Virus record (IMG/VR): IMGVR_UViG_3300007514_000005 | Location: 8,009 to 72,008 of that record | DNA from: a virus | DNA length: 64,000 nt | Strand: one strand, 5' to 3' | Shown: positions 2-63,309 of the stretch, one piece after another | Layout: every line of letters begins with the position of its first letter | Numbering within the stretch: the first letter of the stretch is position 1 | The notes under the pieces: generated by a model | Seen by the model: the letters and a program-made list of their open reading frames with translations, nothing else | What the model was told of the DNA's origin: nothing | Database searches by the model: none | Translations under genes and position numbers: made by a program

Positions 2-3000
2 GACTACATAGCGGCGCAGGGAACATTCGGTGGTTTAAGTGCTGTGGTAGGCGATACTACACCGGAATTAGGTGGAGACCTAGATGTGCAGGCTCGTAAG
101 ATTTACACTAGCACTTCAAATGGTGATATAACACTTGAACCCAAAGATAAGGTGATAGTGAAAACGGGAACATCAGGTAATGATGGTTATTTGCAGATTC
201 TAGGTGATGGTAATAATGCTGATGCAAAATTAAGATTCACAAACGGCACTTATGGATGCAACATAATTCTAGTTAGAACACAACCAAATACTCTCAAAAT
301 TGAAGGTTCTTCTTCATTCAAATTCGATTGCCGCACTTCTACTTCGGGCATGACCTTCCCCGATGGAACGACTCAAAACACGGCGGCTACAAGCCTGACT
401 CTTCTTGACGAAGATAATATGGCTACCAATAGCGCTACTGCCGCCGCTTCACAACAGTCAATAAAGGCGTATGTTGATGCTGAGGTTGCGGGTATTGTTG
501 ATTCTGCACCTTCGGCTTTGAATACTCTAAACGAGTTAGCCGCCGCTTTGGGTGATGATGCTAACTATGCCGCCACTACTACTACTGCTCTAGGACAAAA
601 ATTAGTCAAAGCAAGCAACCTGTCTGATTTGACTAACGCGGGAACAGCGAGAACAAACTTGGGCTTAGGGGCGGCGGCAGTAAAGGCTGTTGCTACTGAT
701 GGCGCAGGTGGTGTTGCTGACGGAGAAGCGGGGTTAGTCACAGGTAATGCAGTATATGATTATGTGGCCGCAAACGGTGGAGATAGTAATGCAGGGGCGG
801 CAAATGGTTCAGCGTCCGCTCCCGCCTTTTCATTCTCAGGTGATAACGACACAGGTATGTATTACAAAAGCAACAACACATTAGGGTTCGCCACAGGCGG
901 CACTTTCAGGATGAGTATTGATAACAACGGGCATCTTTTGGGATTAAACAATTTGCATATCGCAGGGTGGGGGTCTTACTCTTACCCCGCTATTACTATG
1001 GGGGGCGACACAGATACCGGAATAGGTGCAGATGGCGCTAACGGACTTTTCATAGGCACAGGTGGTAGCCCACGAGTGAAGATACAAGGAGATGTTGTAG
1101 ATTTCGTGAATTCAAAGATTAAACTTGGTGGTTCATACGGTTCAGATGGGCAGGTTCTCACTTCCACAGGAAGTGGTGTTGCTTGGGAGAACGCAAGTGG
1201 GGGTATATCCGATATTGTAAGTGATACATCACCACAGTTAGGTGGTAATTTGGATACTCAAGGGTATTACATTCAAAGTAGCACTTCAAATAAAACGGTA
1301 ATAAAACCCGGAGCGGGAAGCGGAAATCCTCAAGTTAGTATCGGAGATGATAGCAACAATCCCGGCATTTTGAGAGTAGGTAGTAATGGGGTGGATAACG
1401 CACTACCCCTTGCTGTTAGCGTCAAGAATTCATCTAACAGCGCACAACAGACCGCCGCGTATTTCTTAGCAGGTAATCAACACTCTTCCGCAAGGGCGGC
1501 AGGATTTGGGCCTAAGATAGAATTTAGGGCTTCTTCCGGCACGCAATATAGCGGCCAAGTATCGGCTACAATAGGCACTAAACAAATAGGAACAGGAGAG
1601 TCAGCAAACCACGACCTACACCTTGAGGCAGGTGGAACAGGTAAAATTAGGTTTAATGACGAATTTTCATTCCCTGCGGCTGATGGTTCTAGCGGCCAAG
1701 TGTTGCAGACCGATGGTTCAGGAACATTGTCTTGGGCGACAGCAGGCGGCGGAGACTCTTGGGGAACGGCGGTAGATGCTCATATTATTCCTGATACTGA
1801 TAACGCATACGATTTAGGTTCTTCTAGTGCTGAATTCAGAAATGGTTATTTTGACGGAACATTGTATTGTGATGGAATAGATTTGCAAGGCAACATTACC
1901 GCGCCTAACTCAGATATTACCATAACAGGTGGTGGGCCTCAAGCAGATAGAGCACACATTAAATTACCTAATGCAACAACCGGAACGCTTCAGATAATGG
2001 GAAATTCCTTACAAAATTCTAACATAGACATTGATACCCGTTATTCATCAGGCACAGGACAAATTAGACTCAAAACTAAAGGCTCAACAAGATTCGCTGT
2101 TGGTGCAGATGGAGACTTACTAATTGGTGGAAGTGCGGCAGGTTCTTCCGGTCAGGTATTGACTTCCGGTGGTAGTGGGTCTGCACCCTCTTGGGCTACT
2201 CCGAGTGGTAGTCCGGGCGGAAGTGATACTCAATTGCAATATAACAACGGTGGCGCTTTTGGTGGAATAACAGGTGTGACTTATGATGACTCCAATGGTA
2301 GGTTATTCTTAGACTCTACAAGAGTAGTTATTGGTGGGTCTGCTAATTATGCTAATGGTCTTACAGTAAATGATGAAGCACAAATGCGAAATACAGTCAA
2401 GTTTGCTGACGGTTCTGCTTCTGCCCCTTCTATTACTCGATGGAATAATGGTGATGATAATACAGGTATTTACTTTGTTAATCCTGATGTAATAGGCTTT
2501 ACAACAGGCGGCACTTCAAGAATGACTATTGCGGCTGATGGAACGGTAAATATCACAGGTTCTTTGACTGTTCAGGGGTCTTCTGTTGGTGGCGCAAGCG
2601 CACTTACCGACCTTTCTGATGCGCTCGTAGAAAATAATTCGGTTTGGGTTGGCTCACCCCCTTCTGCAACAAACGGAGCAAGCGATAACACCGCCATTGG
2701 AAAAGGGGCGCTAGATAGTCTCACGACAGGCGACTATAACACGGCAGTCGGAAGGCACGCGCTGAGCGCGGTGACTAGCGGTAATTACAATGTCGCGCTC
2801 GGTTGGTATGCCGCTTCAGAACATAGCACAAGCACAGAAGGTATAGTCGCTATTGGACATAGTGCCGGAAAAACATCAACCGCAAACGGAAATGTTCTAG
2901 TAGGTCATAGGGCTTTGGAAAACGATTCTTCGGGTGGTTCAAACATCGTCATCGGACATTGGGCGGCGCAACAAACCGAAAATATGTGGACGAGCGTGTA

Positions 3001-4735
3001 TTTAGGATATTTCGCAGGATATGGTAATTCTTCTACAAGCAATACAGGGGATAGCAACATCGGTATTGGATACGAAGCACATCGAAACCACACTACCGGA
3101 AGTAGCAATATCGCCATCGGTAAAGCAAGTCTAAAGCAAGCGACTACCGGAACAAGAAATATCGCCATTGGTGAGGGCGCACTAGAAATGCCCAACACCG
3201 AGAATGATAACCTAGCCATCGGTATTGATGCTATGGGTGGTGGCGTCTCAGGTGGAGAATATAATGTAAGCGTTGGTAATTACTCCGGTGGTGCAAACGC
3301 TCTCAACAACCTTTCTGCTGATGAGTCGGTCTTTGTTGGATACAAGGCCGGAAATAAGGTGGAGAGTGGTGGATATAGCACTATGATTGGTGCGTATGCG
3401 GGTCAAGAGGTGACTACGGGTAATTCCCATGTTCTCATAGGAAGAGAAGCAGGACAAAAATTAACTACGAGTAGTGGAGTAGTCGCTATTGGTTATAATT
3501 CAGGTAGATTTGCAACGGGCGCAAATAACACCTTTGTAGGTTATGGGGCAGGAAAGAGAGGAACAGAAGGTAGTAGTCAATCTAACACAGTAGTAGGATA
3601 TAACGCTTTGCAAAGCAATTATGGTAATCAAAATACAATAATGGGTAGTCAAGCAGGTATCTTCATTACATCTTCTATGAATACAATCATAGGAAATAAC
3701 GCCGGAAGAAACCTAACTTCTGATGCTAACACGGCAGTAGGGTCTGATGCTCTTAACGCCGCTCAAGGTGCTGAAAGAAACACAGCAATAGGATACGGTT
3801 CATTGGATACATTGAGCACGGGAGACAAGAACACCGCTTTGGGATACAAGAGCGGAGACGCAATGAATACGGGGTCGCATAACATCACTATCGGAAATGA
3901 GGCCGGAGATAATATCACGAGCGGTTCAGGAAATGTGGTAATCGGAAAGGCTGATGTATCAAGTGCAACAGGCAACGACCAATTATCTATCTCTTCGGGT
4001 GACGGAGATGTGACTTGGCTCACAGGAACAAGCGCAGGTGTAGTGGATATTCCCGGCTCTTTGACGGTAGCAGGTGCGTCTGTTGGTGGTGCTTCTTCTG
4101 CCCATGTGATTAAGACTGCGGGTGTAAATTGGTATGGTAGTCAGCAGGCTGATATACGACTTACTTCCCTTCCACCATACGGTGTGAAGGCTATGACTAC
4201 TTTCACTTTCAGCACTTCAGGAGATTACGATAAACCTATCTTCTTCCCCTTCGTTGCTCCAAAGACGGGCAACCTTAGCAGGATGAATTCGTATGCTCAT
4301 AGCGGCGCAACAGGACTAAATTTGCTTGTTGCAGTTTATAGCGACCACAACGGATACCCCGCTTCACTACTTTTCAAAGGAACAATGGATTGGTCGAGTG
4401 GTGGGAATAAAACCATTACATCATTCACAGACGCAAGCGGCAACAGCGTCACTCCTTCTTTAACGAAGGACACCCAATACCATGTAGGTTGGGTTAGAGA
4501 CGACAACGGTGTGGCTTACACGGCCTATGTCTCAAATGGGCAATACGGCCCTTCTTCCGGTCTTAACTTGAACATGGCCGAAGCGTATGTGGGTGTATCA
4601 GACACCATTGGGCAGTATGGGGGGTCAAGCAATGTGTTGGCTACTTCCTACAATAGTGGAAGCCCCGATTGGGATGATTTCACTTATTTCAATGCGTCTG
4701 TTAAGCCGATTAACTTTGGAATTAAATACGCATGA
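2..4735 (+). CDS. Long tail fibre / adhesin (5'-truncated by window edge)
   Basis: Frame is open from position 2, so the ORF-track start at 44 is internal. Fibre motifs DSAPSALNTLNELAAALGDD, DT(S/T)P(Q/E)LGG(N/D)LD and repeated G-x-x-GQVL-x-S/T-x-G-x-G-x-x-x-W, plus many ~14-aa N-x-A-I/V-G-x-x-A repeats of YadA-head/beta-roll type. Followed by a fibre chaperone. Confidence 0.85.
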   Translation, partial: DYIAAQGTFGGLSAVVGDTTPELGGDLDVQARKIYTSTSNGDITLEPKDKVIVKTGTSGNDGYLQILGDGNNADAKLRFTNGTYGCNIILVRTQPNTLKIEGSSSFKFDCRTSTSGMTFPDGTTQNTAATSLTLLDEDNMATNSATAAASQQSIKAYVDAEVAGIVDSAPSALNTLNELAAALGDDANYAATTTTALGQKLVKASNLSDLTNAGTARTNLGLGAAAVKAVATDGAGGVADGEAGLVTGNAVYDYVAANGGDSNAGAANGSASAPAFSFSGDNDTGMYYKSNNTLGFATGGTFRMSIDNNGHLLGLNNLHIAGWGSYSYPAITMGGDTDTGIGADGANGLFIGTGGSPRVKIQGDVVDFVNSKIKLGGSYGSDGQVLTSTGSGVAWENASGGISDIVSDTSPQLGGNLDTQGYYIQSSTSNKTVIKPGAGSGNPQVSIGDDSNNPGILRVGSNGVDNALPLAVSVKNSSNSAQQTAAYFLAGNQHSSARAAGFGPKIEFRASSGTQYSGQVSATIGTKQIGTGESANHDLHLEAGGTGKIRFNDEFSFPAADGSSGQVLQTDGSGTLSWATAGGGDSWGTAVDAHIIPDTDNAYDLGSSSAEFRNGYFDGTLYCDGIDLQGNITAPNSDITITGGGPQADRAHIKLPNATTGTLQIMGNSLQNSNIDIDTRYSSGTGQIRLKTKGSTRFAVGADGDLLIGGSAAGSSGQVLTSGGSGSAPSWATPSGSPGGSDTQLQYNNGGAFGGITGVTYDDSNGRLFLDSTRVVIGGSANYANGLTVNDEAQMRNTVKFADGSASAPSITRWNNGDDNTGIYFVNPDVIGFTTGGTSRMTIAADGTVNITGSLTVQGSSVGGASALTDLSDALVENNSVWVGSPPSATNGASDNTAIGKGALDSLTTGDYNTAVGRHALSAVTSGNYNVALGWYAASEHSTSTEGIVAIGHSAGKTSTANGNVLVGHRALENDSSGGSNIVIGHWAAQQTENMWTSVYLGYFAGYGNSSTSNTGDSNIGIGYEAHRNHTTGSSNIAIGKASLKQATTGTRNIAIGEGALEMPNTENDNLAIGIDAMGGGVSGGEYNVSVGNYSGGANALNNLSADESVFVGYKAGNKVESGGYSTMIGAYAGQEVTTGNSHVLIGREAGQKLTTSSGVVAIGYNSGRFATGANNTFVGYGAGKRGTEGSSQSNTVVGYNALQSNYGNQNTIMGSQAGIFITSSMNTIIGNNAGRNLTSDANTAVGSDALNAAQGAERNTAIGYGSLDTLSTGDKNTALGYKSGDAMNTGSHNITIGNEAGDNITSGSGNVVIGKADVSSATGNDQLSISSGDGDVTWLTGTSAGVVDIPGSLTVAGASVGGASSAHVIKTAGVNWYGSQQADIRLTSLPPYGVKAMTTFTFSTSGDYDKPIFFPFVAPKTGNLSRMNSYAHSGATGLNLLVAVYSDHNGYPASLLFKGTMDWSSGGNKTITSFTDASGNSVTPSLTKDTQYHVGWVRDDNGVAYTAYVSNGQYGPSSGLNLNMAEAYVGVSDTIGQYGGSSNVLATSYNSGSPDWDDFTYFNASVKPINFGIKYA

Positions 4736-5968: not shown

Positions 5969-6336
5969 TGAGAGGGCAAGAATTAACACAAGTCCTTTTG
6001 GCTACTTTACTTGTTGGTATGGCTACTGTTGGTAGTGGTGGATACATAGGTAGTATAACAGATAATGTATCCTTCACTTGCCGTGATGTAGAAGGGGAAG
6101 TAGTATGGAAAGACCATTCTGAGGGTTGGTTCAAAATTTATGTGACGCTGTATAACGACAGTATTAGTGGTGATGGACAAAGCGACTATTCCGTATATGT
6201 TGGGCCGGATACTTATGATAGATACCAAATAGGGGATACATACACAGAACAGATGTGTGATGTAGAAGCGCACAATGAATTTAAGCAATTCTTACAAGAC
6301 TTGCTAGATGCGGGGCTTTTGGAGCAAGGTTCATAA
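5959..6336 (+). CDS. Secreted/membrane hypothetical protein
   Basis: Signal-like N-terminus; overlaps the end of the previous gene. Confidence 0.65.
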   Translation: MGLMRGQELTQVLLATLLVGMATVGSGGYIGSITDNVSFTCRDVEGEVVWKDHSEGWFKIYVTLYNDSISGDGQSDYSVYVGPDTYDRYQIGDTYTEQMCDVEAHNEFKQFLQDLLDAGLLEQGS

Positions 6337-6353
6337 ATCATCAAGGCTGTTTA

Positions 6354-7673
6354 GTGCTTATGTCGTGCGACTGTAAGTGTGATTCCGAAGAGGAAATTAT
6401 CGAAGAAGCGGCTTTCAAGACCTGTGAGGTATGTGCTACCAAGTCTTCATGTAAAGAAAAGAATTCCTGTAAGGAGTCTTATTCAGCAGTAATGCTATCA
6501 GCAGACGAAGAAGACACTTGCCCTGTTGGAGAAGAAATGATAGACGGCGAGTGCAAAAAGGTAGCAGTCAGTATTGAATTAGAGATTGACGACATGAAAG
6601 CCATTGTTGAAGCCACTACCGGAGATACTATCATAGAAATTCGTGGTGTAGCATTCCATGAAGGTATGAACAAGAATAATTGGGCATTAACCGCAGAAGG
6701 CGCACGAGCGCTAGTCACACAGATGGAAGGTGCAGACCTAACACTAAATCACCCCGAAGCCTCAGAACACGGCACGGGCTTTACACGAAACATGGATGGT
6801 GGAGTAGAAGAAGCAGTAGTCGGTTATATCAAAGCGGCAGATTTCTATACAACCCCTAGCGGTGGATATGAAGTCCGTTATATCGCTCATGTGCTAAGAC
6901 CTGAATTATTTGAGGCTCTTGAATCCGGCCTTTGGTCGAGAGAAGAGTATGGAGTAAGTATCGGTGGTTCAGGTGTGCCTGTAAGAGCAGACGAAGATGG
7001 AATTCTATTTGGGGAAGACTTTACTTTCGACCATTTGGCTATCGTGCATAAGCCTGCTTATGAGCGGGCGACCATTGAAAATGTGCGTAGAATAGAAAAA
7101 CCCGTTGAAATGGAAGCAAGGTTTATATCTCATTCAAACCGTGAGGATATTAGAACAACCGAAGAGATGGTGAGTGCAATGACCGAAGAGACAATTGATA
7201 CATCAGAAATGGAGAACGAAATAGAGACTCTAAAGGCTGACCTTGTGTTGGCTTCATCCCGCGTAGCGGAGTTTGAGGCGGCTGAGGCTGAGCGCATTGA
7301 GTCCGACAGAATGACTCTCGTGGAGAAGGCTACCGAAATGGGTATGTCCGGCCACGATGATTTGAAGGCTGAGACCCTAGAGACACTAATTGCGTCTTGG
7401 TCTGAGGCTCACCCTGACCCAACCCCTGTGGTTATGGAGTCCGTAGAGGCTGTGACTGACGAAGATGAGACAGTCGAGACCCCTGCTGTGGCTTCCGAGA
7501 CCCCAAGAGCGGTTGTCGCAAACTACCTAAATGGTAAGATTGTCGAGTCCGATGAGGACATTTACGCTCGTGCTTGGAACGCATGGGCAAAGGCATGGAA
7601 CGGAACACTTGCAATTGATGAGAAGGCAAGAATGTCCGCCCCAACATACGATGAACTAAAGGAGATGAACTAA
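6354..7673 (+). CDS. Prohead protease fused to scaffold domain
   Basis: Located just before decoration and capsid genes; H (LTLNHP), S (GVSIGG) and HLAIV-x-x-PAY motifs typical of caudoviral maturation proteases; acidic coiled-coil C-terminal half. Confidence 0.75.
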   Translation: MLMSCDCKCDSEEEIIEEAAFKTCEVCATKSSCKEKNSCKESYSAVMLSADEEDTCPVGEEMIDGECKKVAVSIELEIDDMKAIVEATTGDTIIEIRGVAFHEGMNKNNWALTAEGARALVTQMEGADLTLNHPEASEHGTGFTRNMDGGVEEAVVGYIKAADFYTTPSGGYEVRYIAHVLRPELFEALESGLWSREEYGVSIGGSGVPVRADEDGILFGEDFTFDHLAIVHKPAYERATIENVRRIEKPVEMEARFISHSNREDIRTTEEMVSAMTEETIDTSEMENEIETLKADLVLASSRVAEFEAAEAERIESDRMTLVEKATEMGMSGHDDLKAETLETLIASWSEAHPDPTPVVMESVEAVTDEDETVETPAVASETPRAVVANYLNGKIVESDEDIYARAWNAWAKAWNGTLAIDEKARMSAPTYDELKEMN

Positions 7674-55525: not shown

Positions 55526-55638
55526 TCAATGAGGTAGTTATCCTCATCTATGAGTCTGAGCACTAAGCACGCGGCTAATTCGCGCACTAGGTTCAATCTT
55601 TCTTCGGGCATCTCCGGTGTATGTGTATCTTCTACCAT
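55453..55638 (-). CDS. Small hypothetical protein
   Basis: ORF track; overlaps the Nudix 5' end, so boundaries are uncertain. Confidence 0.35.
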   Translation of the reverse strand: MVEDTHTPEMPEERLNLVRELAACLVLRLIDEDNYLIEWVSPHARVRGREIHKELKARGWD

Positions 55639-55936
55639 CTAGGCCTGTATTCGTGAATCGAGGACTTTCGAATGTCCATTTCGGACATTCGATTTTCCAC
55701 AGAATTTTTGCCTCTATCTTTCTTCTACGCGCACGCGCGAGGCGGCGGTGCAACGGGCATCCCCCTATAAACCTGCCGCAAACCCCCCAAATTAGCCCAA
55801 AAACGGCATTTGTAGCCAACAAAAACGACCACGCAAGCCCAAAATCGCTAGAAGGGGTCATAGAGCCATTTGTTTGCAAAACAGGTCATTACCTACCTGC
55901 GACCCCCTCTCGTGGCTATATATACGCTTAGAGACC

Positions 55937-56073
55937 ATTTGTAGCAAAGGCGATTTGTAGCAAGAGGATTTGTAGCGAACAGAAAAAAATTGTAGCGAAG
56001 AGATTTGTAGCCATGAAAATTTGTAGTGAAGAAATTTGTAGCCTTGAAAATTGTAGCCAACAAAATTTGTAGC
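55937..56073. repeat. Nine tandem direct half-sites A(T/A)TTGTAG(C/T) at 15-16-bp period
   Basis: Copies at 55937, 55953, 55968, 55988, 56003, 56019, 56034, 56049, 56065. Confidence 0.95.
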
Positions 56074-56164
56074 CACCGGACGCGGGCGCGCGGGCGCGCT
56101 TCGCTACAAATTGGTGCTTGAGAGGGCGAATCGGAAGGTTTATTAACTACCCCTATGTCTCACA

Positions 56165-56575
56165 ATTTGCCGCTCCTGTGGAGTGGTGTGCGTGACGGCG
56201 CGCGGGTATTGGTTGCTCGGAGACGGGTAGCCGTGTTGAGTCGGAGTCTAACGGGGAGACTCGGTAGTAGGGGAGTCGGGAGACGACCCGCGCTTAGGCA
56301 ATCTAACCGAGAAGAAAGTAAGACAACGCACTTCCGAACGGGAGCGGTGATTTGAGTAGGACTTGAAAGGATTACACTCGGCTGAAAAAGGGAATAGAGC
56401 CTACTCAATGATTGAGGGCAGGTCTGCTTCGGCGGACTTCGGTAGCACCGCACGCAGGGAAGGACTGCGCCCACCTTACGAGGACGCCTACGAGCCTTCA
56501 CCACTATATGATGCGTGATGCGCCGAGACACGGAAGTTAGAGGCTCGCGCCTTCGTCCGAGAACCAATATCCAAA
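56165..56575 (+). ncRNA. Candidate large structured ncRNA 1 (~410 nt)
   Basis: Promoter ATCGGAAGGTTTATT at ~56130; helices 56170-79/56338-47, 56204-21/56556-72, 56352-60/56400-08; UUCG hairpin 56421-36; no credible ORF. Confidence 0.7.
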
Positions 56576-56591
56576 TTTAACGGTGAAAGAA

Positions 56592-57020
56592 TCAAGCGCA
56601 CTTCGCGCAGACTACTCTCATTGGGTTGCTCGTAATATCCGCTTGCTTTACTTTTCTAGCGGTTGTCGCGGGTGCATTTTCGTTGCACCCAACACATACG
56701 CCTGTGCTACCGCGTAGCATCATCATAACAGGCGCGGCCTGAATGAATCCGGTCAAGTCAATTACTTTCACGGGTGTAGGAATGTTCTCTTTTCGGAGCA
56801 AGCGCCGCATCTTGTTGAGTCGGTGGTTCTCGCAGGTCGTTTTATGGCTTCGGCCTTTTATCGCTCCACAGCATTCGTGCCTCTCTCGTCCTTCCGAGAA
56901 TCGCCCGTTGCTTTTTCCGGTGCGTGCCTTGCTCTCGCCTGTGGCCTTGCCGCCCTTGCGACCTGCCGCTTGCTTTTGCTTGTCTGTGGCCTTGAATGTG
57001 CCGTCCTCATACCTGCGCAT
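56592..57020 (-). CDS. Basic protein with KGG motif and Cys/His clusters
   Basis: Start placed at 57020, just after the cassette-type promoter GACCGACAGGTTCATAAG (57060-57043); AAGRKGGKATG, CCG...H...C, CVGC...CAKC. Confidence 0.7.
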   Translation of the reverse strand: MRRYEDGTFKATDKQKQAAGRKGGKATGESKARTGKSNGRFSEGRERHECCGAIKGRSHKTTCENHRLNKMRRLLRKENIPTPVKVIDLTGFIQAAPVMMMLRGSTGVCVGCNENAPATTARKVKQADITSNPMRVVCAKCA

Positions 57021-57098
57021 AATAGGGTCACGCGGGCATTTGCTTATGAACCTGTCGGTCATCGAAAGGTTTAAGTGCAAACGCCTCTCCCCTCAATT

Positions 57099-57475
57099 TG
57101 TAAGTCGGCGGGGAACTGAACACTCCCTGCCTTGAAGCCATCGAGAACGCATGAGTGCATACGAGCGCCCTTCGGGGAAGCGACATGACGCAAGGCCCAA
57201 TGGCGGGTCGCGTGGAGACAACCAAATAGGGGGAATCTGCGAGCGAGTTAGGACTACCCTATCGGTGGCGAGGCAAAAGGGAGCGAAATAACGAAAGCCG
57301 TGAAGACGAACCGCACCTGCCTTGAGATGGGTTAGCGCCCATCTCTCGTAGGTTGCCCTCAACGGGGGTGAAGGTCGGGGTTGTTCAACCCGTCAGACTT
57401 GGTGCGAAAAGACCCGTCTCGGTCTCGCCCACCTTGCGGAAGGGTGGAGAACAGGAGCGAGGCGGGCAACCCATT
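57099..57475 (+). ncRNA. Candidate large structured ncRNA 2 (~380 nt)
   Basis: Promoter ATCGAAAGGTTTAA at 57061; AAGTCGGCGGG (57102) pairs with CCCGTCAGACTT (57389-57400); hairpins CCC-TTCG-GGG, GAGATGGG/CCCATCTC, CCACCTT/AGGGTGG. Confidence 0.6.
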
Positions 57476-57916
57476 ACTAATAAAGGTAAAAGAACCGCGC
57501 AGAAATTGTAGCAAGGACAAAAAGTGCGTGGGGATTTGTAGCCATGAGAATGTAGGCCCGCCAATTTGTAGCGAGCGGCGGGAGACAGGGGGTTAATAAA
57601 CCTTTTCTTTTAGGGGTAATTTGTAGCACACTCGGTGTGCCGCAAAACACCTACCCTGCATATCACACTAAGTGCATTTTCTACACCTACTTTCAAATTT
57701 GTAGCAAGTTTTTTTCACGCACCGGATAAAATTTGTAGCAAAGACTTTTTTGCGCGCGCAAAAATTTGTAGCAAAGGGCGAAAAACCGCCAAAACACTAC
57801 AAATTTGTAGCAAAGAGGCCTTTTTCTCATATATAAACAAAATTGGCTACAAATTTGTAGCAAAGGGGGGAATAAGCCACCGACAGGTTCATATAGGCAC
57901 ACCCTGTCCGCTAAAC

Positions 57917-58195
57917 ATGGACTACCACAAGATAGAGCCGGAACAAAGCGAGCAAATGAAGAAATTGCAAGCGATAGAGGATGCGGGAGAGTGTGCGAGC
58001 CTGACTTGCATAGAACACTTCTGTATGGTATGCGCGCGTAAAGGAATTGTAGGGCGTATAGTAAAGGGATGGAGAATTTGCGAAGCAAGCAAACTCTACA
58101 AGGCGCAATTACACATTGTTGCCGACTGTGAAAACTGCGGTGAGATTATGCACTTCAATTGGATAGACCGAGACAAGATTGAGGGGGGGTATTAA
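57917..58195 (+). CDS. Cassette ORF, Zn-binding (92 aa)
   Basis: Start after promoter CGACAGGTTCATATA; CMVC...CENC; the ORF-track upstream extension runs through repeats. Confidence 0.7.
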   Translation: MDYHKIEPEQSEQMKKLQAIEDAGECASLTCIEHFCMVCARKGIVGRIVKGWRICEASKLYKAQLHIVADCENCGEIMHFNWIDRDKIEGGY

Positions 58196-58200
58196 ATACT

Positions 58201-58320
58201 ATGACTGAGTGCGAAGAGTGTGGAAAAAAGGCGACCGTGAAAACATGGAGCATGGGAGACGAGATTTACATTGAGGTTTGTTGCGTGTATTGCAACCTGA
58301 CCGCCGCCTACGGTCTTTAG
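58201..58320 (+). CDS. Cassette ORF, Zn ribbon (39 aa)
   Basis: MTECEECGKKATVKTWSMGDEIYIEVCCVYCNLTAAYGL*, followed by a T-run. Confidence 0.65.
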   Translation: MTECEECGKKATVKTWSMGDEIYIEVCCVYCNLTAAYGL

Positions 58321-58451
58321 TTTTTTAGGGCGCAAAGAAATTTGTAGCAAACGCTTTTTCAACAGGGGGGATAACACACGCTACAAATTTGTAGCAAAGG
58401 GAAGAATGGAAGAGCGACAGGTTCATAAGGGCAAGCCTCTTCGGTCTAATC

Positions 58452-58631
58452 ATGCTAACAAGGAAGCATTACCAAAAGATTGCCGCCGCTATTGCGGCAG
58501 TTGATGACCCACAAGAGAAAGCCACAGCATATATGACGGTGATAGATATGTGCCGAGAGTCGAACCCAAGATTTGACGAGGACAAGTTTTGGGATGCGTG
58601 CGACTTCCCTGACGGGTTCAGGATTGAGTGA
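58452..58631 (+). CDS. Cassette ORF, small phage protein of the M-x-TRK-x-Y...NPRFD-x-x-x-F-x-x-AC type (59 aa)
   Basis: Hand translation; promoter CGACAGGTTCATAAGGG at ~58414. Confidence 0.75.
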   Translation: MLTRKHYQKIAAAIAAVDDPQEKATAYMTVIDMCRESNPRFDEDKFWDACDFPDGFRIE

Positions 58632-58632
58632 G

Positions 58633-58764
58633 ATGAGAGCGCCAACCTACGAAGAGTTTAAGGCCCACATTTGGCCCGCTTGGAGTGAGAAGGGGCAGAC
58701 CGAGCACGAGTGCGAAGAGGCCTACCTGTGGTTCATTCGCGGGCGCAGGTCTGTGAGGTGGTAA
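58633..58764 (+). CDS. Cassette ORF (43 aa)
   Basis: MRAPTYEEFKAHIW...; followed by a hairpin plus T-tract. Confidence 0.6.
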   Translation: MRAPTYEEFKAHIWPAWSEKGQTEHECEEAYLWFIRGRRSVRW

Positions 58765-58919
58765 GCGGGGGCGTTGCCCCCCTTCCCCTTTTTTCTATAC
58801 TCCTGAAAAATTTGTAGCAAAGAGGGCGTGAGGCGGTTGTGCCGTAGGCTACAAATTTGTAGCGAAGAGAAGAATGCTTGACCGACAGGTTGATAAGGGG
58901 AGAGCGAGTGGAGTAAAAT

Positions 58920-59153
58920 ATGGCGACAGTCATTGAGGACGAACAACCGGAAGGAATTATAGAAGCGAAGATGGGCAAGCAGGATAGCCTGTGGGTAGAT
59001 ACCCCACGCGGTCTCCTGCACATATTCGTGCGTGGAGACGGCACATGGAAGATGACCGCATGGAACAGCGGCGGTAAGAATGCACCCAAGATTACTAAGA
59101 GGAAGAAGAAGGGGCGCACCTACTACCACCTAAGCCAAGTCTTGAACGAGTGA
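58920..59153 (+). CDS. Cassette ORF (77 aa)
   Basis: Promoter GACCGACAGGTTGATAAG at 58880; downstream GGGGC-GAAA-GCCCC terminator-like hairpin. Confidence 0.75.
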   Translation: MATVIEDEQPEGIIEAKMGKQDSLWVDTPRGLLHIFVRGDGTWKMTAWNSGGKNAPKITKRKKKGRTYYHLSQVLNE

Positions 59154-59340
59154 TTACGCAACAAAGAGAAGGGGGGCGAAAGCCCCTCTTTTCTATACCC
59201 GTGAAAAATTTGTAGCGAAGAGCGTAAAGCAAAAACACCGACTGCTACAAATTTGTAGCATAGAGAGCGTAAAACGAGGGCGCGGTTGGCTACAAATTTC
59301 ATACCGACACCCTTAAGTAGTCACCCCCCCTGCGACAAAC

Positions 59341-59682
59341 ATGGAGTTAGCAATACAATACGACATAGAAGCGACAGCAATGAACCGCGTTGAAGAGGGA
59401 GCAATGGAGAGCGAAGCAGATTTCTTCACGGGGGCAATGGCTATGTATTTGGCTCTCAAGCCGAAGAGTGAGGAAGATGGGTCGTGGTGTCCGCCTTCTT
59501 GGATATTCACTCTCATGGCGGGAGATAGTATAGTCGAGAAAGTAAGGGAAGAAGACGAGGCCGCAATGGAAGCAGACAGGCAGATGGAGAGGGCCGAGAT
59601 TGCGGCTGAGAACGCTTACGATGCACAGCGCGAGATTAGCGCTGAGATGTGCTATGACGACAGGTATGACGATTACTACTGA
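59341..59682 (+). CDS. Cassette ORF, acidic (113 aa)
   Basis: Promoter-like CCGACACCCTTAAG at ~59304; downstream hairpin GGGCGGGA/TCCCGCCC. Confidence 0.75.
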   Translation: MELAIQYDIEATAMNRVEEGAMESEADFFTGAMAMYLALKPKSEEDGSWCPPSWIFTLMAGDSIVEKVREEDEAAMEADRQMERAEIAAENAYDAQREISAEMCYDDRYDDYY

Positions 59683-59872
59683 TTGAGCGGGCGGGAAGGC
59701 ATCATCCCGCCCCTCTTTCTATCGCTGGGATAAATTTGTAGCAAAGGGGGAATGAAACGCGCGGACATGAGGCTACAAATTTGTAGCGTGCTGAGCGTGT
59801 GTGAGAAGAATGGTCGGTTGGCTACAAATATCCTATCGGTGGGTTTAATAGGGGAAGCGTCTAGGGCGGTAT

Positions 59873-60205
59873 ATGTCTAACAGACGGGGAAACCGGAAGC
59901 ACAACCGCGACAGGTTTGAGGGCGCACGCCTAAGCGACTCGGAGCGAGTCGAGTGCGCTAATCTCATGGATAGCATACGAGCGCGCAAGCCTCAGCAATT
60001 CCGTGCAGGGCGAGACCTATTGGTTGTGTTGAAGGATACAGGAAAAGTAAGAGAAGTGGAAGGAAGCAGGGGCGATATGATTTGCTGTATAGTGCGCGGC
60101 GGTGTCGAGCACACTTGGATGATGCGAATGAAGTCTCAAGTCATGGGCAAGAGTGCGAAGGGATGCAAGCAAAAATTGCGAGTGGATAAAATTCTTTGGG
60201 CGTGA
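59873..60205 (+). CDS. Cassette ORF, basic (110 aa)
   Basis: Promoter TCGGTGGGTTTAATA at ~59836. Confidence 0.75.
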   Translation: MSNRRGNRKHNRDRFEGARLSDSERVECANLMDSIRARKPQQFRAGRDLLVVLKDTGKVREVEGSRGDMICCIVRGGVEHTWMMRMKSQVMGKSAKGCKQKLRVDKILWA

Positions 60206-60394
60206 AACAAATACCCCTCTTGATTTGTAGCGAAGATTTCTTTAGCGCCTACAAAAATTTGTAGCGAACACACATGGGGAAGGTGAATGCGCACGGGCTA
60301 CAAATTTGTAGCCAACACACCGCAGAAATACAGCGCGGCTTTGCTACAAATTCGCAATCGAAAGGTTTAATACCCCACCCCCCTTCCCCTAAAT

Positions 60395-60830
60395 TGTAGG
60401 TCGTTGCCGACCTATGTTCCCCTACGGGGGGGCGGGTGCTCATTGGAGTCAGGTGGCGTTGAAACGCATCATAAGCCCGTGCAATGCTCGCAGAAGATTC
60501 GCGGGGTTGGAAACACGGGGGGATGGTCTGCCTTACGACTCTTGTTGAACGGGGTTCTCTTCTAGCGAAGTCGCGCTTGCGCGGCCTCTCCTACGGAGAT
60601 TAAATACGCGGCGGTGTCGCCCCAATTATTCGGGAGTCGAGGGCAGGTATCGAGGGTGTGTAGTGTTAGGAAGAAAGGAGTTCGCAGGTGAAACACCATA
60701 AGTCTGAATATGTAATTCGCGCGCGTGGCTTGGCTTCAATAGTATGGAAAGCGGGGGTCGCGCGCCCCTGTCCTCTCGCAAAGAGGCCACCGCTCGGCAG
60801 GGCGGCCCAACATAGTCGGCACGGCTTACA
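60395..60830 (+). ncRNA. Candidate large structured ncRNA 3 (~436 nt)
   Basis: Promoter ATCGAAAGGTTTAATA at 60357; 5' TGTAGGTCGTTGCCGACCTATGTT pairs with 3' AACATAGTCGGCACGGCTTACA; two C-TACG-G hairpins and a CTTG-loop hairpin. Confidence 0.75.
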
Positions 60831-61181
60831 CCTTTAGTTTTATCGCTATAAAATTTGTAGCGAATTAAGTTCGTTGTTTTTCTCGCGCGCTGAAAGAATA
60901 AAACGCATGACTGCTCCAAATTTGTAGCAATTCTTTATTTCCTTCTATTATGTTTTAGAGTAATGCCCTTTCTATAACTACTATTGAAAGAATAGAATAA
61001 ATACAAATTTGTAGCGCAGTAGCCCGAATAATTCTTTTTCCTCTTTTCAGAATTATTGAAAGAATTACTACAAATTTGTAGCCAACCGTCTGTTGTGGGC
61101 CTTCGCGCGCGTCACCCGTGACGCCCTTTGCTACAAATTTCACATCGGCAGGTTCATAAGGGGAGACCCACTCGGTTGAAC

Positions 61182-61382
61182 ATGGACAAAAAGCAGAAGC
61201 GCTACATTGAGCGCATTGTTATGGCGGGCCTAAGAATGATTGGCGAGAACGATGAGGGAGAGCCGTTGGAGACCTTCGGCGACCTCTTCAAAGAGCATGA
61301 CGCGGTGATGGCTCTTCTCGGTCTTGACGAAGAGTCAAACCTTGTTTTCGGTGAGGAAGCAATACTGAAAGACCCGCAATGA
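61182..61382 (+). CDS. Cassette ORF (66 aa)
   Basis: MDKKQKRY..., after promoter ATCGGCAGGTTCATAAGGGG (61144). Confidence 0.75.
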   Translation: MDKKQKRYIERIVMAGLRMIGENDEGEPLETFGDLFKEHDAVMALLGLDEESNLVFGEEAILKDPQ

Positions 61383-61662
61383 GGGGGGGCGCGCACCCGC
61401 TTATAATGTTTTCTTTACCCCGTAAAAATTTGTAGCAAAGAGCACTTCTTTCTTTGTGCGCACCGCACACGCGGGCCGTTGCCTACAAATTTGTAGCGAA
61501 GAGCGCTTAACCCCTACGCCCTTGCGCCTTACTGTATCAGACTACAAATTTGTAGTGAATGGTGCGTCTGTTGCGCCCCCGCGCGTGCGTCACGGGTGAC
61601 TTCGCTACAAATAAAACCTTATAAGGGGATACCCACTCGGATAGAATAAGGAGCGAAAAAAT

Positions 61663-61812: not shown

Positions 61813-61887
61813 GACGGATGGGGGGCAACCCCCTTCCCTCTTTCTTCACATCGGTAGGTTTATAGGCAGACGCCTACTCGGTTAGAA

Positions 61888-61973
61888 TGGTGGTAGCCAC
61901 TCCGCCTGTTAGCGCAGGTAGCAAGGTGAGTGCGGTTCGCGCGGACTGCGGGTGCAAATCCCGATACCGCCAC
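61888..61973 (+). ncRNA. tRNA-like RNA (acceptor stem + T-arm, non-canonical middle)
   Basis: GGTGGTA (61889-95) pairs with TACCGCC (61965-71) plus discriminator A; CGGG-TGCAAAT-CCCG T-arm; own promoter CATCGGTAGGTTTATAGG; T-tract after. Confidence 0.6.
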
Positions 61974-62153
61974 ACTTTTCTTTACCCCTAAGAAATTTGT
62001 AGCGAAGCGACCGTCTGTTGTGCGCGCGCAAAAGCGTCACCCGTGACGGCTACAAATTTGTAGCCAACCCCACCACAGCCCGCCGCCCGCGCGGTAAAAC
62101 CCCCCGCTTGGCTACAAATAAAAGATTATAAGGGGAGACCTGCTCGGTTGAGC

Positions 62154-62656: not shown

Positions 62657-63309
62657 GCGGAGCGCGTTTGCGCTTATAATCTTTTCTTTAGCGCTGATAA
62701 ATTTGTAGCCAAGCGTCTTTCTTTCTTTTTCCCGCGCGCGTCCAGACCACACACCCTACAAATTTGTAGCCTGTCGAGCGTTAAGACAACGCGCGCTTTT
62801 TGTGTAAAGGTTAATAGACTACAAATTTGTAGCGAAGTTAGGTTAAACAAAGGCGCGCGCCCTTAACCCTTATACTCTTTGCTACAAATTTTACTGCGCG
62901 TGGGTCTCCCCTTCCTTCCTATTTATCCGTGTAGGTGTAAGGATATAAACCTTACGGTTAAAGAAATTTGTAGCCAAGAGGGGTTAAACAAAACGCGCGC
63001 GTGCGGGGTAAGGGGGGTTGGGCTACAAATTTGTAGCGTATCGAACCCCCTTCAGAAAAAAGAGTGTAAAGGGAACGCGCCCTTAGTAGGCTACGAATTT
63101 GTAGCGTAGGGGGCTACCCCCTTACGCGCGTAAAACAAAAACAAAGGGGGCTACAAATTTGTAGCCAAGATACCTACAACAAAACAACCGCGCGAAACAC
63201 AAACGCGCTACGCTACAAATTTGTCGCTTGTTGTAGTAGAAAAAATAAATCGCTTCGCTACAAATACGCAACCGATAGGACTATAAGGGCGGGCCTACTC
63301 GCTCTAATC

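Follow-up and report, generated by a model that had tools for sequence, protein, structure and literature searches.

Few large structured RNAs lack an assigned function, and such RNAs have repeatedly been a source of new biochemistry. Among those described, GOLLD and ROOL are large, ornate non-coding RNAs that often reside in phages and prophages (bioRxiv 10.1101/2024.12.08.627333, PMC5737381), and Tan1 is an abundant 229-nucleotide (nt) non-coding RNA carried on metagenome fragments of Marine Group II archaea (PMC5069720). Some Marine Group II fragments of this sort may themselves be viral (PMC5434244). Here we examine a 64,000-nt stretch of the IMG/VR virus record IMGVR_UViG_3300007514_000005 (the window, taken at its full length) and, within it, a unit without a credible open reading frame (ORF) that begins near position 57100. 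We put at roughly 70% the probability that positions 57100 to ~57470 on the + strand are a real, free-standing gene for a structured non-coding RNA of a new family in an archaeal-type marine virus. The RNA belongs to a previously undescribed structured RNA family, here the RNA2 family, found so far only in a few marine magrovirus-type tailed viruses.

The 57100 RNA resembles GOLLD and ROOL in being a large, elaborately folded viral RNA of unknown function, encoded as a free-standing gene and combining conserved loops and junctions with variable inserts. It differs from them in lacking any Rfam model match, in its shorter length (~370 nt in the window; ~300 to 370 nt as the range used for comparison with known RNAs), and in belonging to a virus with archaeal-type promoters. 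Tan1 is the closest known RNA in this setting: it shares the setting and the presumed host lineage and is likewise a structured RNA absent from Rfam searches, but it is 229 nt long, a comparison made by published description alone. A search of Rfam 15 (4227 models), a library that we take to include the GOLLD, ROOL, and phage phi29 packaging RNA (pRNA) families, returned no match anywhere in the window at gathering thresholds. At E ≤ 10 it returned three matches across 55800 to 61200, all of them microRNA models on palindromic repeats, and over six homologue-bearing loci it gave two chance matches, neither on the RNA. The Rfam check suggested in the preliminary description of this candidate therefore leaves 57061 to 57480 without a known family. 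In a literature search, with supplements outside its reach, no account of a large structured RNA from an archaeal virus came up, and a term search of magrovirus papers (PMC5434244 among them, again excluding supplements) found no mention of non-coding RNAs or promoters.

Homologues had to be sought with patterns, because a BLAST-type DNA search of the records of 16 relatives missed the RNA body: the flanks match, but the body at the syntenic site does not. A second place in G003, the closest complete relative, matches the promoter and the first 38 nt, and from this window/G003 pair we took the search pattern GTAAGT-N7-GAACTGAACACT. The pattern occurs at six loci in viral contigs (four true members, two chance) and at 23 loci in metagenomes (16 true members, seven chance). 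Species-representative prokaryote genomes hold it at four loci, all chance and none with the stem, so that, within the reach of this one exact pattern, nothing in those genomes points to a cellular copy. A covariance model of the 3′ domain (R1), built from six sequences, recovered one further divergent member, which lies upstream of an RNA in contig L088 that shares only a 5′ module (P0/P1, below) with the family. The 103.5-bit R1 score of window positions 57303 to 57414 is a match by construction because the window is among the six sequences, whereas the independent member L088:3127-3287 scores 29.1 bits. The members recovered by the pattern, with the window included, come to 21 sequences, 11 of them distinct, and two of the distinct ones share the P0/P1 module only. 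Three other patterns added no members: promoter plus 5′ end had no match in viral contigs; CTGCCTTG..TAGGTTGC had at least 116 matches there, with no homologue by BLASTN among the loci listed; and the purine-rich strand of the RNA led to three loci, two already known and one a coding false match.

A whole-length MAFFT alignment of four members was unusable because inserts spoilt it, and the 5′ and 3′ domains were therefore aligned separately. For the 5′ domain (57100 to 57311, + strand) a plain MAFFT alignment of eight distinct sequences was used to count four helices, namely P0, the loop-proximal part of P1, P2, and the base of insert P3. Across these helices 98.1% of cells are paired and nine of 20 pairs changed on both sides, compared with 28 to 48% and zero to two pairs in controls in which the partner strand was slid. 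The domain is closed by P0 (57100-57106 with 57305-57311; 96.4% of cells paired), which in relatives reads GUAAGUG with CACUUAC directly before the 3′ domain. All seven P0 pairs form in six of the seven aligned relatives (one with a G-U pair) and five of seven form in the window, where pair 7/209 is C-G in place of the G-C of the others and so supports the helix. Hairpin P1 follows at 57107 to 57131 (57107-57113 with 57125-57131), with a stem that varies yet stays paired and an 11-nt loop, AACUGAACACU (57114-57124), that is identical in all members but L088:2938, which carries AACUGAUAACU. Helix P2 (57138-57144 with 57262-57268, spanning 57138 to 57268), in which four of seven pairs changed on both sides, encloses the variable insert P3 (~57145-57246; ~100 nt in the window, down to ~20 nt in L104) and the conserved GUUAGGACU (57247-57255). 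A purine-rich joining strand containing AGGCAAAAGGGAGCGAAAUAAC runs from 57269 to 57304 and its columns are nearly invariant in the corresponding alignment (A4). Among members, the GUUAGGACU and ..AAAAGGGAGCGAAAUAAC.. strands are almost invariant, and the P3 insert and 3′ tail are free to vary.

The 3′ domain (57312 to 57406, + strand) is a 29-pair four-way junction proposed by RNAalifold from six sequences, onto which 20 matches (eight distinct) were aligned (alignment A3). In this alignment 96.3% of cells are paired and 16 of the 29 pairs changed on both sides; no measure was reached by any of 500 shuffles, and moving the partner by one to three columns lowered the values to 37 to 52% paired and two to four pairs changed on both sides. 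The helices are Pa (57312-17/57401-06), H2 (57319-22/57350-53), Pb (57324-31/57338-45), Pc (57355-58/57364-69), H5 (57372-75/57397-57400; two of four pairs changed on both sides), and Pd (57376-80/57389-92, with loop UUGUUCAA). Columns 17/85, 87/154, and 158/185 are G-U in all or nearly all sequences, and on the opposite strand these positions would be A-C, which argues for a fold formed by + strand RNA and against a DNA structure. The four-way junction, 6-bp closing stem, three arms, and GUUC-containing last loop recall a tRNA, but neither ARAGORN nor Rfam calls one here or elsewhere in the window, the lengths of the arms are wrong for a tRNA, and a CCA-like end is lacking. The window unit carries all four features that define the family, namely P0, P1 with AACUGAACACU, P2 with its insert, GUUAGGACU, and purine-rich strand, and the R1 3′ domain.

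As judged from covariation, the conserved two-domain fold is well supported, and the existence in relatives of a conserved fold bears out the original proposal of a large structured non-coding RNA behind the promoter subtype described below. The closing helix first suggested for it, 57102 with 57389-57400, is not the conserved one: AAGTC at 57102-57106 is indeed complementary to GACTT at 57396-57400, but in the comparative fold 57305-57311 is the partner of the 5′ end, and 57397-57400 forms a local helix with 57372-57375. The predicted 3′ stem fared better in part, since CCCGTCTCG (57413-57421) and CGAGGCGGG (57458-57466) do form 9 bp, one of them G-U, in the minimum free energy (MFE) fold, enclosing an inner hairpin (57428-35/57440-47). 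The tail that carries this hairpin (57413 to 57466, + strand) differs in every lineage. Beyond it a possible 3′ extension spans 57467 to 57615 (+ strand), the first run of T residues past the RNA being at 57602-57610. Enforcing the comparative helices on the window gives a folding energy of −142.1 kcal/mol, against −150.5 for the unconstrained optimum. From the single sequence, folding on the + strand exceeds that of shuffled controls, as predicted, though modestly (z = −2.19, three of 100 shuffles as good; − strand, z = −1.35, 12 of 100). The G+C fraction of 57100 to 57470 is 0.596, compared with 0.46 to 0.54 in adjoining genes, and no ATG-initiated ORF overlapping 57100 to 57480 exceeds 52 amino acids (aa).

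The window covers bases 8009 to 72008 of a complete record of 72,008 bp, bounded by 119-bp terminal repeats. By PHROG and Pfam it encodes a family B DNA polymerase, clamp loader, exonuclease, Cpn60-type chaperonin, tape measure protein, and tail fibre proteins. The best matches of the polymerase among deposited viruses are haloarchaeal tailed viruses, at only 23 to 25% identity, and searching a viral collection with it led to 41 related contigs. The metagenomes that hold this virus sequence are marine or seawater. Magroviruses, presumed viruses of Marine Group II archaea, are described with the same gene set (PMC5434244). The present genome combines a tailed-virus structural module with an archaeal-type replication module (family B polymerase), a chaperonin, and marine provenance, and its gene content marks this complete 72-kb tailed virus as one of magrovirus type, an assignment by gene set and to no named subgroup. 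The virus probably infects archaea. Deposited phages have no DNA match to 56100 to 57600 or 60300 to 60900.

Transcription of the 57100 unit is predicted from a promoter word shared with a few other units. The strings quoted in the preliminary description were found where it had placed them: ATCGAAAGGTTTAA lies at 57061-57074 (+ strand) and 60357-60370, and ATCGGAAGGTTTA at 56130-56142. The subtype word ATCGRAAGGTTTA occurs exactly three times on both strands of the 64 kb (shuffle mean, 0.01; none of 100 shuffles reaches three), and its copies are confined to three ORF-less units (56169-56590, 57100-57470, and 60396-60812), so that the subtype is exclusive to them. A wider word, CGRNAGGTTYAW, is found at 10 places, where 0.25 would be expected, and every one of them falls within 55.7 to 62.6 kb. 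We take CGRNAGGTTYAW and ATCGAAAGGTTTAA to be an archaeal BRE/TATA-type promoter of leaderless mRNAs. Cassettes in this region are built from T-rich ends, two or three TTTGTAGC (half-)palindromes, CGRNAGGTTYAW, and then, in protein cassettes, an ATG whose A stands 36 to 37 nt past the start of the word. At that position (A)ATT(T)G stands in each of the three ORF-less units, with no credible ORF behind it, which upholds the contrast drawn in the preliminary description between AATT(T)G and ATG. The (half-)palindromes TTGTAGC/GCTACAA, two or three of which precede nearly every cassette promoter, have 74 of their 85 genomic sites in the final 10 kb (62-72 kb of the genome, 54000-64000 of the window), and they look like operators of a virus-specific regulator. 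Relatives show the same layout with other palindromes (CAACAAATTTGTTG in L003, CTACATAATGTTATGTAG in L087).

Because the A of ATG holds the same position in leaderless protein cassettes, we place the transcription start at 57100 (+ strand), the G of GTAAGT, 37 nt past the start of the promoter word. We infer that the RNA is transcribed from G57100 by an archaeal-type promoter of the same design as the leaderless early genes of the virus, and would thus start where those genes have their ATG. In the family members inspected (window, G003-type, L087/L090-type, L088, L094), a start-stop pair, NTG-TAA, straddles the predicted start, with N being A, G, or T according to group; the window has TTG-TAA at 57098 and TTG-TAG at 60394, and relatives have ATG-TAA or GTG-TAA there. 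This pair may be chance or may be a device that keeps a leaderless-type start untranslated; NTG-TAA at the start is expected by chance about four times in 10, and a T at −1 is equally explained by start-site preference.

Several observations weigh against reading 57100 to ~57470 as an active RNA gene. No transcript, start site, or 3′ end has been seen for the unit, and its single-sequence folding advantage, given above, is small. The A3 alignment was fitted to its model and the 5′ helices were chosen by eye from the same sequences in which they were then counted; both alignments contain eight distinct sequences from few lineages, so the double changes represent few independent events. The 142-aa protein encoded next to the RNA has no Pfam or PHROG family, and Atlas gave just unnamed viral clusters for it (scores, 0.80 to 0.86). 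The remaining three points are also those that favour the likeliest alternative, a decaying or silent copy, derived from an RNA gene that once worked and now neither made nor used in this virus. The two P0 mismatches (57102/57309, 57103/57308) occur in the window only (one of eight sequences at each pair); the tail is not followed directly by a T-run, unlike in relatives, whose RNA ends in one there; and the promoter at 57061 lacks TTTGTAGC sites within 130 nt upstream, unlike other cassettes. All other helices are nevertheless intact, and the differences peculiar to the window are compensated (P2, CCAUCGA/UCGGUGG versus AUACCGA/UCGGUAU; Pa, CGCACC/GGUGCG versus CCCCCC/GGGGGG; P0, C-G versus G-C). 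The promoter word is an exact copy of that of the 60.4-kb unit, and the invariant loop and junction strands are unchanged. We consider a silent copy unlikely.

A second alternative concerns what the RNA does. GOLLD and ROOL of phages and the phi29 pRNA are reported to form multimers, and the pRNA in particular is made from an early promoter near the genome end and carries two loops that could pair between molecules. The 57100 RNA is likewise a virus-encoded structured RNA with an early promoter near a genome end and two loops that might do so, and if the P1 loop of one molecule paired with the Pd loop of another, RNA-only multimers would result. In all eight members the final 60 nt of the 3′ domain contain a 5- to 8-nt complement of the P1 loop, which in five of them falls in the Pd loop near GUUC, and the member with a changed P1 loop (CUGAU for CUGAA) has AUCAG for UUCAG in its Pd hairpin. 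The count is weak evidence, however, because when G-U pairs are allowed four of the eight have equal or longer complements elsewhere; in the variant member the complement lies mostly inside the Pd stem; and pairing within one molecule fits the same data. Nor does the RNA match the Rfam models of GOLLD, ROOL, or pRNA at any threshold used; it has no known connection with packaging, and the present virus, with its terminal repeats, has a different type of genome from that of phi29. Self-assembly of this kind is in our view improbable.

Two further alternatives dispute the free-standing RNA gene itself. As a leader or cis-regulatory RNA (a riboswitch or attenuator), the unit would act on a downstream gene, and it does lie upstream of a + strand cassette starting at 57917 with no strong terminator before 57602-57610. 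That next gene, however, is equipped with a separate promoter word (57881) and with upstream TTTGTAGC sites of its own, the RNA of relatives ends in a T-run, and downstream genes differ among relatives, so that we give this idea very little credence. Scarcely credible, too, is a role of the unit as DNA (as an origin, a packaging site, or a region bound by a regulator) or as a gene for a short protein, for although the unit sits where leftward and rightward transcription diverge in a repeat-rich genome end and there are ORFs of 46 to 89 aa on both strands, the conserved G-U pairs make the fold strand-specific, the compensatory changes preserve pairing and not sequence, indels of ~20 to 100 nt fall inside the ORFs, and these match no Pfam family.

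The free-standing RNA gene is the reading that we favour. Back to back with the promoter at 57061-57074 is a minus-strand promoter word (57046-57057) belonging to a divergent gene for the basic, Cys-rich 142-aa protein (56592 to 57020, − strand). With tblastn, relatives of this protein were found in L082, L083, L002, L087/L102/L108, and L107, and it is the only constant neighbour of the RNA site. In G003 the site holds an unrelated 660-nt ORF-less unit (L082:3545-4215), and the family member occupies the place of the 60.4-kb unit of the window. In G004 (L083:~2600-3010, minus strand) two small genes are followed at the RNA site by a different ORF-less unit of ~420 nt behind AGCGAAAGGTTCTTAA. 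The family has a patchy distribution: beyond the virus of the window and G003, a model search of the records of 23 further relatives gave three matches, two of them solid, and the family model has no match in the two other records that are 92 to 100% complete. Because different ORF-less units stand at the same site in relatives, the RNA unit looks like a swappable cassette. The P0/P1 module also appears on another body, in a different RNA found in both L088 and L107.

Some of these loci have further features of their own. The 660-nt unit of G003 has segments near its ends, with ACUGAAC and GUUCAGU, that are complementary and could pair. L088 carries tandem RNAs (2938-3290 and 3441-3745), a divergent family member and then a different RNA that shares the P0/P1 module. 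In L094 a family member (6293-6575) is followed by a short unit from 6610, whose 5′ GUAAGGA can pair with UCCUUAC ~50 nt downstream.

The two sister units of the window are RNA1 (56169 to 56590, + strand; promoter word, 56130-56143; z = −1.61) and RNA3 (60396 to 60812, + strand; promoter word, 60357-60370; z = −1.83). A core shared among the three RNAs was considered and rejected: the covariance model of the 3′ domain matches only the 57100 unit, and BLASTN finds no likeness between units. Common to all three are the promoter subtype and ~8 nt adjoining the start site, so that of the 5′ end said to be shared with the 60.4-kb RNA only this short stretch stands.

For expression, 55600 to 61400 was compared with contigs of three RNA-labelled runs and one DNA run, all small (30 to 53 million letters); the RNA libraries that yielded contigs on the sister units were two small ones of a study from which this DNA may stem and one of another study. 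RNA1 is covered by contigs at 56101-56382 and 56169-56520, of which the second begins exactly at the start predicted from promoter spacing and the first begins upstream. RNA3 is covered by contigs at 60469-60807, 60532-60812, and 60414-60808 (three runs, two studies), whose ends fall within 6 nt of each other (60807-60812) where the DNA contig runs on, a weak hint of a 3′ end. RNA-library contigs also lie on two protein genes. Contig depths (~12.5 and 106 to 113, versus 2 to 11) cannot be used to rank genes. No RNA-library contig lies on 57100 to 57480, which for contigs of such small runs speaks neither for nor against expression. A related strain (run X3) has 20 other letters in place of 71 nt of RNA3 (60466-60536), as would suit a variable arm.

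Other features of this genome end may include additional non-coding units. A minus-strand promoter-like word, GAAAAGGTTTATTAA (the reverse complement of 57592-57606), is followed by AAATTG ~25 nt downstream and by a T-run ~45 nt further; the segment 57517-57606 is conserved in G003, and its minus strand would give a small RNA antisense to any 3′ extension of the 57100 RNA. At 62880 to 62960 the minus-strand promoter word CGTAAGGTTTAT predicts a start at 62919, a place without an ATG, and may mark a further non-coding unit. Behind a promoter word of the same type (61852-61863), positions 61887 to 61976 fold (z = −0.95) as a three-armed cloverleaf that is closed by a stem of 8 bp and has 7 nt in its last loop, and they are also a 34-aa ORF whose first codon lies at the predicted start. 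No tRNA is called at 61852 to 61991 by ARAGORN or Rfam. The UUAGCG loop of this cloverleaf is the same as the Pb loop of the 57100 RNA.

What the 57100 RNA might do can be framed from its conserved parts and its position. We propose that it would be a stable, trans-acting scaffold or decoy of early infection, to which a protein would be bound by way of the P1 loop, which is invariant, and of the conserved strands at the junctions. The partner could be a host factor or the conserved neighbouring 142-aa protein, which is zinc-ribbon-like, and the RNA would be one of an exchangeable set of RNA cassettes serving host takeover or counter-defence. Variable cargo in the early regions of viruses typically serves these ends. 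That is one reason why we favour a scaffold or decoy; the others are that conservation is concentrated in single-stranded parts and that a small, basic, conserved protein is encoded beside the site. We advance this role tentatively, as a possibility.

More speculatively still, magrovirus-type viruses may maintain an exchangeable early-region repertoire of large structured RNAs, several per genome, some with a common P0/P1 module docking one host or viral partner. Such RNAs might be decoys against defence or self-assembling particles, and would then be the first class of large functional non-coding RNAs of archaeal viruses. A covariation-supported fold, eight distinct sequences, a base-exact start prediction from the promoter model, and a candidate protein neighbour are now available, and with these in hand the RNA can be made and probed in vitro even though host and virus are uncultured. 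If the cassettes are counter-defence or takeover tools, they would open to study RNA-based virus-host conflict in very abundant archaea of the surface ocean.

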